Assembly: GCF_030013205.1 (NCBI RefSeq)
Contig: NZ_CP122648.1
Reading direction: 5' to 3' (one strand)
From: Escherichia coli
GTDB taxonomy: Bacteria; Pseudomonadota; Gammaproteobacteria; Enterobacterales; Enterobacteriaceae
DNA: 64,000 bases
The stretch's first letter is position 1, and each line of letters starts with the position of its first letter. Below the pieces are notes generated by a model. The model had not been told where the DNA came from. It saw only the letters and a program-made list of their open reading frames with translations, and searched no databases. Shown in pieces: positions 53,065-55,790 of the stretch. A program made the position numbers and the translations under genes.

Positions 53065-53734
53065 ATGACAGACATTACAGCCAATGTGATCGTATCGATG
53101 CCTTCGCAACTCTTCACTATGGCTCGTTCTTTTAAAGCCGTAGCCAATGGCAAAATTTATATCGGTAAAATTGACACTGACCCGGTAAATCCTGAAAACC
53201 AGATTCAGGTTTATGTGGAGAACGAAGACGGTTCTCACGTTCCTGTTGCACAGCCAATCATCATTAACGCCGCTGGTTATCCTGTATATAACGGACAGAT
53301 TGCCAAGTTCGTTACTGTGCAAGGCCATTCCATGGCTGTTTATGATGCGTATGGGGCGCAGCAGTTCTATTTTCCGAATGTGCTGAAGTACAACCCTGAT
53401 CAATTACGAACAATTCTTGAAGGAAGTATTATTGATTCTTCAGGCGATGTTTTTGGCTCTCCTGTGCGTGATTTTGAATATTTTGGCGCAGTAGGTGATG
53501 GTGTTGCCGATGACACTAATGCAATTAAATCCGCGGCTGCATGGGTTACTTCTGGAAATTATCGGCAAATAACTACCAGAGAACAAAAGATATATCGCGT
53601 AACATCAACCGTTGATTTTAATTTCGCTAACGGCCGCGGTCACTCGATTCTGATGAAGAGTCCAATCCGACCTGATGCTGGAACCGGCACTGCTTTTCTC
53701 ATTCAGAATACTCGAGACTCGGTATTCAATTTGA
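53065..53734 (+). pseudogene. P22-like tailspike, N-terminal head-binding domain (gene interrupted by IS1)
   Basis: [97 protein letters not shown]...; frame continues after IS1. Confidence 0.85.
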
Positions 53735-53749
53735 GGTAATGACTCCAAC

Positions 53750-54253
53750 TTACTGATAGTGTTTTATGTTCAGATAATGCCCGATGACCTTGTCATGCAG
53801 CTCCACCGATTTTGAGAACGACAGTGACTTCCGTCCCAGCCTTGCCAGATGTTGTCTCAGATTCAGGTTATGCCGCTCAATGCGCTGAGTATAACGCTTG
53901 CTGATAACGTGCAGCTTTCCCTTCAGGCGTGATTCATACAGCGGCCAGCCATCCGTCATCCATACCACGACCTCAAAGGCCGACAGCAGGCTCAGAAGAC
54001 GCTCCAGTGTGGCCAGAGTGCGTTCACCGAAGACGTGCGCCACAACCGTCCTCCGCATCCTGTCATACGCGTAAAACAGCCAGCGCTGACGTGATTTAGC
54101 ACCGACGTAGCCCCACTGTTCGTCCATTTCAGCGCAGACAATCACATCACTGCCCGGTTGTATGCGCGAGGTTACCGACTGCGGCCTGAGTTTTTTAAGT
54201 GGCGGAAAATCGTGTTGAGGCCAACGCCAATAATGCGTGCACTGGCGCGACAT
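53750..54253 (-). CDS. insB: IS1 InsB (expressed as InsAB' by frameshift)
   Basis: 167 aa, …[28 protein letters not shown]…. Confidence 0.9.
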
Positions 54254-54447
54254 CCGACGCCATTCATGGCCATATCAATGATTTTCTGGTGCGTACCGGG
54301 CTGAGAGGCGGCGTAAGTGAACTGTAGTTGCCATGTTTTACGGCAGTGAGAGCAGAGATAGCGCTGATGTCCGGCGGTGCTTTTGCCGTTACGCACCACC
54401 CCGTCAGTAGCTGAACAGGAGGGACAGCTGATAGAAACAGAAGCCAC
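54172..54447 (-). CDS. insA: IS1 InsA
   Basis: 91 aa, [43 protein letters not shown]... Confidence 0.93.
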
Positions 54448-54502
54448 TGGAGCACCTCAAAAACACCATCATACACTAAATCAGTAAGTTGGCAGCATCA
54501 CC

Positions 54503-55790
54503 CAATTTGAAAGTAGATGGGGGCGGGGACTCAAATGCGGATTACTATGTTCCTGGAAGCACAAACTTCGTTGACTATAGCCAGGCAGACCCGGCAGGCG
54601 CCCAGACAGCATTTTATATCAGGGGGGTCAGAAATTCTGATATTGATGTGACTGGGCTTAAATTTGCAGGGCGAGTTCTTCGCACCAATGCGTTGGACGT
54701 TGCCGCTGGTGGGATTATCAAAACATCGTTCAATACATTGCGCATTAAGACTGGGGACCAGGGGGCCGGTGAAACTGTACGTTGTGGTCAGGCGTATTAT
54801 CTACAAGGTGATGATTCTGCATGGGGCAAGATTGATCGCGCCTGGCTTAACTGGGACAGGTTTGGCAGTGTGCATTACAAACTAGTGGATGTTACCATTG
54901 GGAATATAGAAGCTGGTTTTGCAGGTAACGGCGGGCTTCAGTTTTATGGGATAGCTACCGCCCACATTGGAACTCTTTCCGTTGGTGATGAGACATTAAC
55001 TAACACTAATATCTTGTTCGCTAACTCAACGGACGGACAAGAATGTATTGCAGTACATATAGACAGAATCTTTACTGGCTCAGGTAATATCGGGGTAGAG
55101 CTAAGGGGTTCTAATGGGGGTGGTGGTGGTAATAGACCAAACTTTGATATCAACAGCATCTACGTAATTACGTGTGCAAACAGCAATGTCATATTGAACG
55201 GAACCAATAATAGCATCATAAGGAATATTCAATCTCAGGGCGGCGCTGTTGCCGTTAGATTGCAGCGGGTTATAAGAAACCTTCATCTCACTATTAATAG
55301 CTCCTCTGAATCAGGATCTAGCATCCTCGCAGACCCAGGTTCAAACATAAATAACTTGTATGTTAATGGCAGGAGTTACGGTAATACAGGAGCAGCTACT
55401 GTAGACCTTTTAGCCGCTACTGGGGGTATGCGCTGTGTGTTTGATGGATATACCGTGCGATCTGGAATGGCAGCGTACGCCATTCCAGTAACAAACTCTG
55501 TCACCATTCAAAATGGTGAAATAGATATATCATCTGGAGGTGTTGCTTTCTCGGTTGGAGTTCCAAGGGTAAACGTAAATAACGTTGGGTTTATTACTAG
55601 GAATAGAGGGTCAGGTTTAATTTTGGCAGGAAACCAGACCATTACTATCTCTCATGGTCTTGCACAACAGCCAACAGAAATATGTGTGACGCCATTATCA
55701 ACAGCAACTGGGTTTAGAGTGCTTAATATTACAGCGACATCATTTGATGTGAGATTATCCTCTGCATTAGGTGGTTCGGATCCAGCTTAG
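54503..55790 (+). pseudogene. P22-like tailspike, C-terminal receptor-binding domain
   Basis: In frame with 53065-53734 once IS1 and one TSD copy are removed (…VFNL|KVDGGGDSNADYY…); Gly/Asn-rich repetitive sequence. Confidence 0.75.

Follow-up and report, generated by a model that had tools for sequence, protein, structure and literature searches.

An IS1 insertion in the tailspike gene of a cryptic P22-like prophage at argW in porcine Escherichia coli

Results

Organization of the locus

In the 64-kb stretch of Escherichia coli DNA analysed here (the window), a tailspike gene carried by a cryptic P22-like prophage remnant is interrupted by a complete copy of IS1 (Table 1). The remnant opens with the attL core TGGTGTCCCCTGCAG, torI, a small-terminase fragment, a gp4 fragment, a gp10-like head-closure gene and a NUMOD4/HNH endonuclease gene. 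These are followed by a tail-needle fragment, an acyltransferase fragment, the gene for a 665-aa DNA-transfer protein, an Arc-family gene and the tailspike gene with its IS1, and the remnant closes with a gtr cluster of the O-antigen modification type (GtrA, DUF2142 and a GT2 glycosyltransferase), intS and a degenerate att copy. The tailspike gene has the Arc-family gene on one side and the gtr/int end on the other, which is where P22-type tailspike genes are usually found (the P22 immI region). The prophage att sites escaped a seeded repeat search of 46200-60600 and were located by direct matching to the 3' end of argW. In the strains whose tailspike gene is uninterrupted, tRNA-Arg adjoins intS.

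The remnant is of the KplE1/CPS-53 type in that it is integrated at argW, has a duplicated att core, and carries torI and intS at opposite ends. It shares with KplE1/CPS-53 of K-12 the argW attachment site, torI at one end, and intS with a gtr-type cluster at the other, a likeness of general layout rather than of directly compared sequence, and both elements are defective. Unlike KplE1/CPS-53, the remnant in the window retains P22-type late genes, namely the gp10-like gene, the tail-needle fragment and the genes for the DNA-transfer protein and the tailspike.

Other mobile and accessory elements share the window. A P4-like, satellite-type island sits in tandem with the prophage remnant and separates it from tRNA-Arg (argW); it runs from 59986 to 64000 and beyond the window, its full extent being 1563200-1575900 of NZ_CP122719.1 (2200-14900 of our extracted locus L004). 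Besides MazE/MazF and a homologue of the P2-family major capsid protein, the part in the window carries a 236-aa ORF without a family match and an Ogr/Delta zinc-finger gene, and the part beyond carries two integrases, a toprim primase and an Icd-like gene. P4-like islands do not usually carry a capsid gene; this capsid homologue has an extension of about 120 aa at its N terminus, for which there was no match. On the other side, a csc sucrose-utilisation cluster (40922-46267; a LacI-type regulator, cscA, a kinase and an MFS transporter) adjoins a truncated dsdX and lies immediately upstream of attL. The chromosomal backbone also holds an InsQ/TnpB gene at 1-906 and IS200C tnpA copies at 4574-5032 and 30356-30814.

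Table 1. Features of the interrupted tailspike gene, its IS1, the prophage remnant and the adjoining satellite island
Feature	Position	Strand	Basis or remark
Cryptic P22-like (KplE1/CPS-53-type) prophage remnant, ~13 kb, at argW	46709-59985	.	annotation and att match
att core TGGTGTCCCCTGCAG	46709-46723		match to argW 3' end
NUMOD4/HNH homing-endonuclease-type gene	49098-49631		between gp10-like gene and tail-needle fragment
Tailspike 5' fragment (codons 1-223 and first base of codon 224)	53065-53734	+	ORF and excision reading
Head-binding domain, aa 1-113	53065-53403	+	Pfam PF09008, E = 2.6e-66, full profile covered
Left copy of 8-bp target-site duplication CAATTTGA	53727-53734	.	sequence reading; single copy at ETEC4068 empty site
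Complete IS1, 768 bp, IS1F-like variant	53735-54502	-	end repeats and K-12 comparison
IS1 right inverted repeat (IRR, insB-distal) GGTAATGACTCCAACTTACTGAT	53735-53757	+	end-pattern match
insB frame, 167-aa ORF, DDE_Tnp_IS1	53750-54253	-	Pfam PF03400, E = 1.1e-74
insA, 91 aa, GTG start, Zn-ribbon and HTH	54172-54447	-	Pfam PF03811 (E = 3e-21), PF12759 (E = 4.4e-28)
-1 programmed frameshift motif (A6C) TTAAAAAAC	54190-54198	-	IS1 positions 305-313
IS1 left inverted repeat (IRL, insA-proximal) GGTGATGCTGCCAACTTACTGAT	54480-54502	-	end-pattern match
Right copy of 8-bp target-site duplication CAATTTGA	54503-54510	.	sequence reading
Tailspike 3' fragment (rest of codon 224 to stop; most of putative receptor-binding domain)	54511-55790	+	
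Degenerate att copy ATGGTGTCCC-TGCAG, one C fewer than TGGTGTCCCCTGCAG	59969-59985		between intS and satellite island
MazE/MazF, satellite island	60206-60798		
P2-family major capsid homologue, 423 aa, satellite island	60842-62113	-	PF05125, E = 5e-73

The IS1 element is complete and its reading frames are intact

A preliminary description of this DNA had placed a complete 768-bp IS1 with both terminal inverted repeats, together with its target duplication, at 53727-54510. Reading of the region 53400-54800 showed that these boundaries of repeat, element and repeat are exact: GGTAATGACTCCAACTTACTGAT begins at 53735 and the reverse complement of GGTGATGCTGCCAACTTACTGAT finishes at 54502. The degenerate IS1 end consensus GGTRATGMYKCCAACTTACTGAT matches the 64-kb window solely at these two ends, on the plus strand at one and on the minus strand at the other, where 0.00 matches are expected in shuffled sequence. 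The terminal inverted repeats are imperfect, agreeing at 19 of their first 23 bases.

The transposase genes lie on the minus strand relative to the window. A -1 shift at TTAAAAAAC, built in silico, joins insA to the insB frame in a 232-aa InsAB' fusion (53750-54447), and RefSeq likewise records this copy as an intact 'IS1 family transposase, programmed frameshift' (WP_236281370.1). Its length, its ends of about 23 bp starting with GGT, its insA/insB arrangement with frameshift, its 8-bp duplication and its nucleotide similarity are all those of the IS1 family. The intact reading frames, and a copy number that varies between sister genomes, suggest that the copy is transposition-competent; between 15 and 24 places per chromosome match IS1 among these genomes.

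With K-12 IS1A and IS1F the element has in common its length of 768 bp, terminal repeats of the form GGTRATG...CCAACTTACTGAT, a 91-aa insA, insB, the TTAAAAAAC -1 frameshift motif, a 232-aa InsAB' and an 8/9-bp target duplication. It is a sequence variant relative to both, being identical to IS1F at 737 of 768 positions (96.0%) and to IS1A at 717 of 768 (93.4%), in each case without indels. In K-12 IS1F, insB is annotated as a pseudogene, whereas the frames are intact in the window. Copies 100% identical to the window element are present on the chromosome and both plasmids of strain ETEC1748 and also in other porcine strains. Copies at least 99% identical were found in only 150 of the 9,595 records that matched, and the best 30 matching records listed are all from pig or wild boar.

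The insertion is flanked by an 8-bp target duplication

The direct repeat CAATTTGA reported in the preliminary description is present on both sides of IS1 and is not extendable. A 9-bp duplication was considered and rejected since the outer bases differ, being T and C at the left and G and A at the right, so that the duplication is exactly 8 bp. The chance of an 8-bp match at two fixed positions is about 1 in 65,536. The target is 75% A+T, in a surrounding region of about 44-45% G+C; the interior of IS1 has about 52-58% G+C.

The duplication made by IS1 is usually quoted as 9 bp. Duplications of either 8 or 9 bp have been reported for the element (PMC12428005). We surveyed ten other copies that are 100% identical to the IS1 in the window, and found duplications of 8 bp at four, of 9 bp at three and none at three. 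Since both lengths occur among identical copies, 8 bp is a normal duplication length for the variant. The three duplication-free copies lie beside selB (ETEC1748), in rcsA (UMNF18) and in dcuC (P13-6), which indicates that IS1-associated deletions or IS1-IS1 recombination occur in these genomes.

Excision of IS1 and one repeat copy restores a tailspike gene

IS1 lies at codons 221-224 of the tailspike gene, within the putative receptor-binding part, which spans 53404-55790 with the insertion included. The interrupted 5' ORF is of 224 aa and ends ...FNL-R-stop at 53739. The preliminary description had proposed that removing IS1 and one copy of the repeat would restore a reading frame of about 649 codons; joining 53065-53734 to 54511-55790 in silico indeed gave 1950 nt in frame, encoding 649 aa and a stop. 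Excision of IS1 with both copies of CAATTTGA left in place was also tried, and this broke the frame with immediate stops. RefSeq (PGAP) labels 54507-55790 a 'hypothetical protein', and our results show that this is the 3' part of the tailspike gene.

The N-terminal head-binding domain that had been proposed for the restored protein is matched by PF09008 (Table 1). In a search of PDB sequences, aa 1-116 matched Sf6 gp14 (E = 1.5e-63) and P22 gp9 (E ~1e-49). The restored tailspike thus has its head-binding domain in common with P22 gp9 and Sf6 gp14, but differs from them in the receptor-binding part, for which the same search gave no match. A Pfam search of this part returned nothing significant, with only sub-threshold pectate-lyase-like and endosialidase matches. 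Against 50,697 phage records, its best matches were at 28-30% identity, to tailspikes of Klebsiella phages and to Escherichia phage ZCEC13, and no close relative was among these records.

We also modelled the tailspike by AlphaFold2 from an alignment of six sequences (phage tblastn matches). The model, which is of moderate quality, is all-beta with pLDDT of 70-90 over about aa 133-540. Its top Foldseek matches in the PDB are the tailspikes of Sf6, P22 and HK620, CBA120 TSP1 and Phi92 colanidase, followed by further beta-helix polysaccharide enzymes, with a probability of about 1.0, yet with TM-scores of just 0.2-0.4. This moderate-quality model suggests that the C-terminal part is a beta-helix-like domain. 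The receptor-binding domain named in the preliminary description is accordingly borne out as a region homologous to phage tailspikes and predicted to be beta-rich, and a head-binding plus receptor-binding architecture of the tailspike is supported.

Filled and empty sites occur in sister strains from pigs

We searched the restored gene against 5,426 complete E. coli genomes. The whole tailspike gene is present in only 17 of them, all from pig or wild boar, and the serotype is O139:H1 in both of the two strains for which it is stated. Seven have the site filled by IS1, with the same junction in each of these independent complete assemblies: ETEC1748, 4067, 4069, 4070, 4071, 4079 and K_EC180. 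The recorded origin of ETEC1748 is Belgian and that of K_EC180 is South Korea. Over its first 47 kb the window has one mismatch to the ETEC1748 chromosome (NZ_CP122719.1, ~1503196-1567195), and none over the next 14.9 kb.

The other ten genomes carry an uninterrupted 1950-nt gene annotated as a 'phage head-binding domain-containing protein' (WP_063086732.1 or a one-residue variant), and provide the uninterrupted ortholog with which comparison had been proposed. The restored ORF matches the intact gene for WP_063086732.1 at 1950 of 1950 positions (100%) in the sister strains W13-16, P15-25, ETEC4068 and ETEC4075, and identity is 99.9% in the remaining six genomes. At the empty site of ETEC4068, the sequence reads ...CGGTATT CAATTTGA AAGTAGATGG..., with one copy of the target, and a single copy of CAATTTGA is likewise found at the empty site of the nine other genomes. 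Outside IS1, 12.2 kb of the prophage were compared with ETEC4068, and two positions differ. The gene is also intact in EC571 and EC581, both from pigs.

W13-16 and P15-25 have been published as isolates from edema disease, of type O139:H1 ST1, and the paper describing their genomes (PMC8798679) makes no mention of IS1. Our literature search found no paper on the IS1 insertion in the tailspike gene.

The satellite island is present in ETEC1748 and K_EC180, which have the filled site, and absent from ETEC4068, W13-16, EC556 and ETEC6333, which have the empty one. In K_EC180, the 3' tailspike fragment carries three single-G deletions in runs of 4-5 G (at the equivalents of window positions 54519, 55105 and 55116), which break it into two ORFs. 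These deletions may be further decay after the IS1 insertion, or homopolymer sequencing errors.

The prophage was defective irrespective of IS1

The remnant is without large terminase, portal, scaffold, coat, lysis and replication genes, and without all early genes. Two deletion joints lie within 47351-50581. At one, the small-terminase fragment is fused to the gp4 fragment, with removal of large terminase, portal, scaffold and coat; at the other, the tail-needle (gp26-like) fragment is fused to the acyltransferase fragment. Both joints are present in every strain examined, and the same truncations are found in the four empty-site strains examined (ETEC4068, W13-16, EC556 and ETEC6333). Individual strains show additional changes: ETEC6333 has an IS3-family insertion within the HNH gene, and EC556 (Japan) has an extra deletion (6230-6865 of our extracted locus L012) by which the acyltransferase fragment and the 665-aa DNA-transfer gene are lost and the tailspike gene is still intact.

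Discussion

The locus is best explained by an ordinary, single and recent insertion of IS1 into the tailspike gene of a cryptic prophage at argW, very probably without phenotype, a reading to which we give a probability of about 0.96. We found no evidence that contradicts this simple account. A likely course of events can be proposed. The donor would have been of the type of the transposition-competent, IS1F-like copies that are present in multiple copies on the chromosome and plasmids of the porcine lineage. Transposition mediated by InsAB', with a staggered cut of 8 bp, would have placed such a copy at codons 221-224 of the tailspike gene, in one event, in an ancestor shared by the strains of a sublineage that is today represented in Belgium and South Korea. 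The gene is split by IS1: the N-terminal ORF of 224 aa retains the head-binding domain and the first portion of the putative beta-helix, and the C-terminal remainder is left without a promoter. As the prophage had lost the capacity to form virions, the phenotypic effect was very probably nil.

That the insertion is recent is shown by the observation that neither the two halves of the gene nor the IS1 has diverged. The preliminary description had called it recent relative to gene decay. This holds for the tailspike gene, whose flanks are identical to the intact allele at 1950 of 1950 positions and whose IS1 is 100% identical to copies elsewhere in that genome. It does not hold for the prophage, which was already defective. 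Since the same truncations are found in empty-site strains, the prophage had ceased to function before IS1 arrived, so that the insertion inactivated no working phage but struck an orphan gene. It is most likely that the insertion was neutral.

Could the element have arrived without transposing into the site? Homologous recombination between IS1 copies, an adjacent rearrangement or the resolution of a cointegrate could bring an IS1 to a new place, with the flanking repeat a coincidence, and three of the ten other identical copies lack a duplication, so rearrangements at IS1 ends do happen. Here, however, the 8-bp repeat is exact, the empty site has exactly one copy of it, and each flank aligns colinearly with the intact gene at 100% identity. 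Set side by side, the filled and empty sites in practice refute such an origin, whose probability we consider negligible. A transposition having taken place, it may be asked whether it took place once. IS1 favours AT-rich targets, the target here is 75% A+T, and the filled strains come from two continents, so the Belgian and Korean insertions could be independent hits at a hot spot, or the filled allele could have spread by recombination. We regard either as improbable: the site, the orientation, the duplication and the IS1 sequence are all identical in the strains from Belgium and Korea, and the argW satellite element is found in both of the filled genomes examined, ETEC1748 and K_EC180, and in none of the four empty ones examined. 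These two observations argue that the insertion was probably a single event.

The remaining alternatives concern whether IS1 inactivated something of use. The 649-aa ORF is intact in ten genomes despite the decayed prophage around it, as it would be if the prophage were still inducible or the tailspike had been exapted by the host. Such a functioning gene is very unlikely, because large terminase, portal, scaffold, coat, lysis and replication genes are all missing from the remnant, whose small-terminase, gp4 and tail-needle genes are truncated. Moreover, the alleles are near-identical, so that recency by itself predicts an intact ORF, which is thus no sign of selection. Equally slim, in our estimate, is the chance that the orphan tailspike has been kept because it is useful, whether as a lineage-specific receptor-binding module that incoming P22-like phages could acquire through recombination or as an exapted polysaccharide depolymerase. 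If that were true, strains with the IS1 knock-out would form a sublineage whose susceptibility to phages is altered. On the same reading, the receptor-binding domain, which is confined to the porcine lineage and lacks a close relative among the phage records searched, could also be an O139-specific depolymerase not characterised before.

The preferred reading remains that of a neutral insertion into an orphan gene. Our analysis confirms that it is a routine and already annotated pseudogenisation in a cryptic prophage. Its significance lies mainly in annotation, as a clean example of pseudogenisation mediated by an insertion sequence. The receptor-binding module may be a candidate depolymerase limited to the porcine lineage, possibly specific for O139, and the restored 649-aa protein is perhaps of minor practical interest as such a lineage-specific candidate. 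The filled and empty alleles could also be told apart by PCR, and so be used to mark one sublineage of the porcine E. coli that are associated with edema disease and post-weaning diarrhoea.
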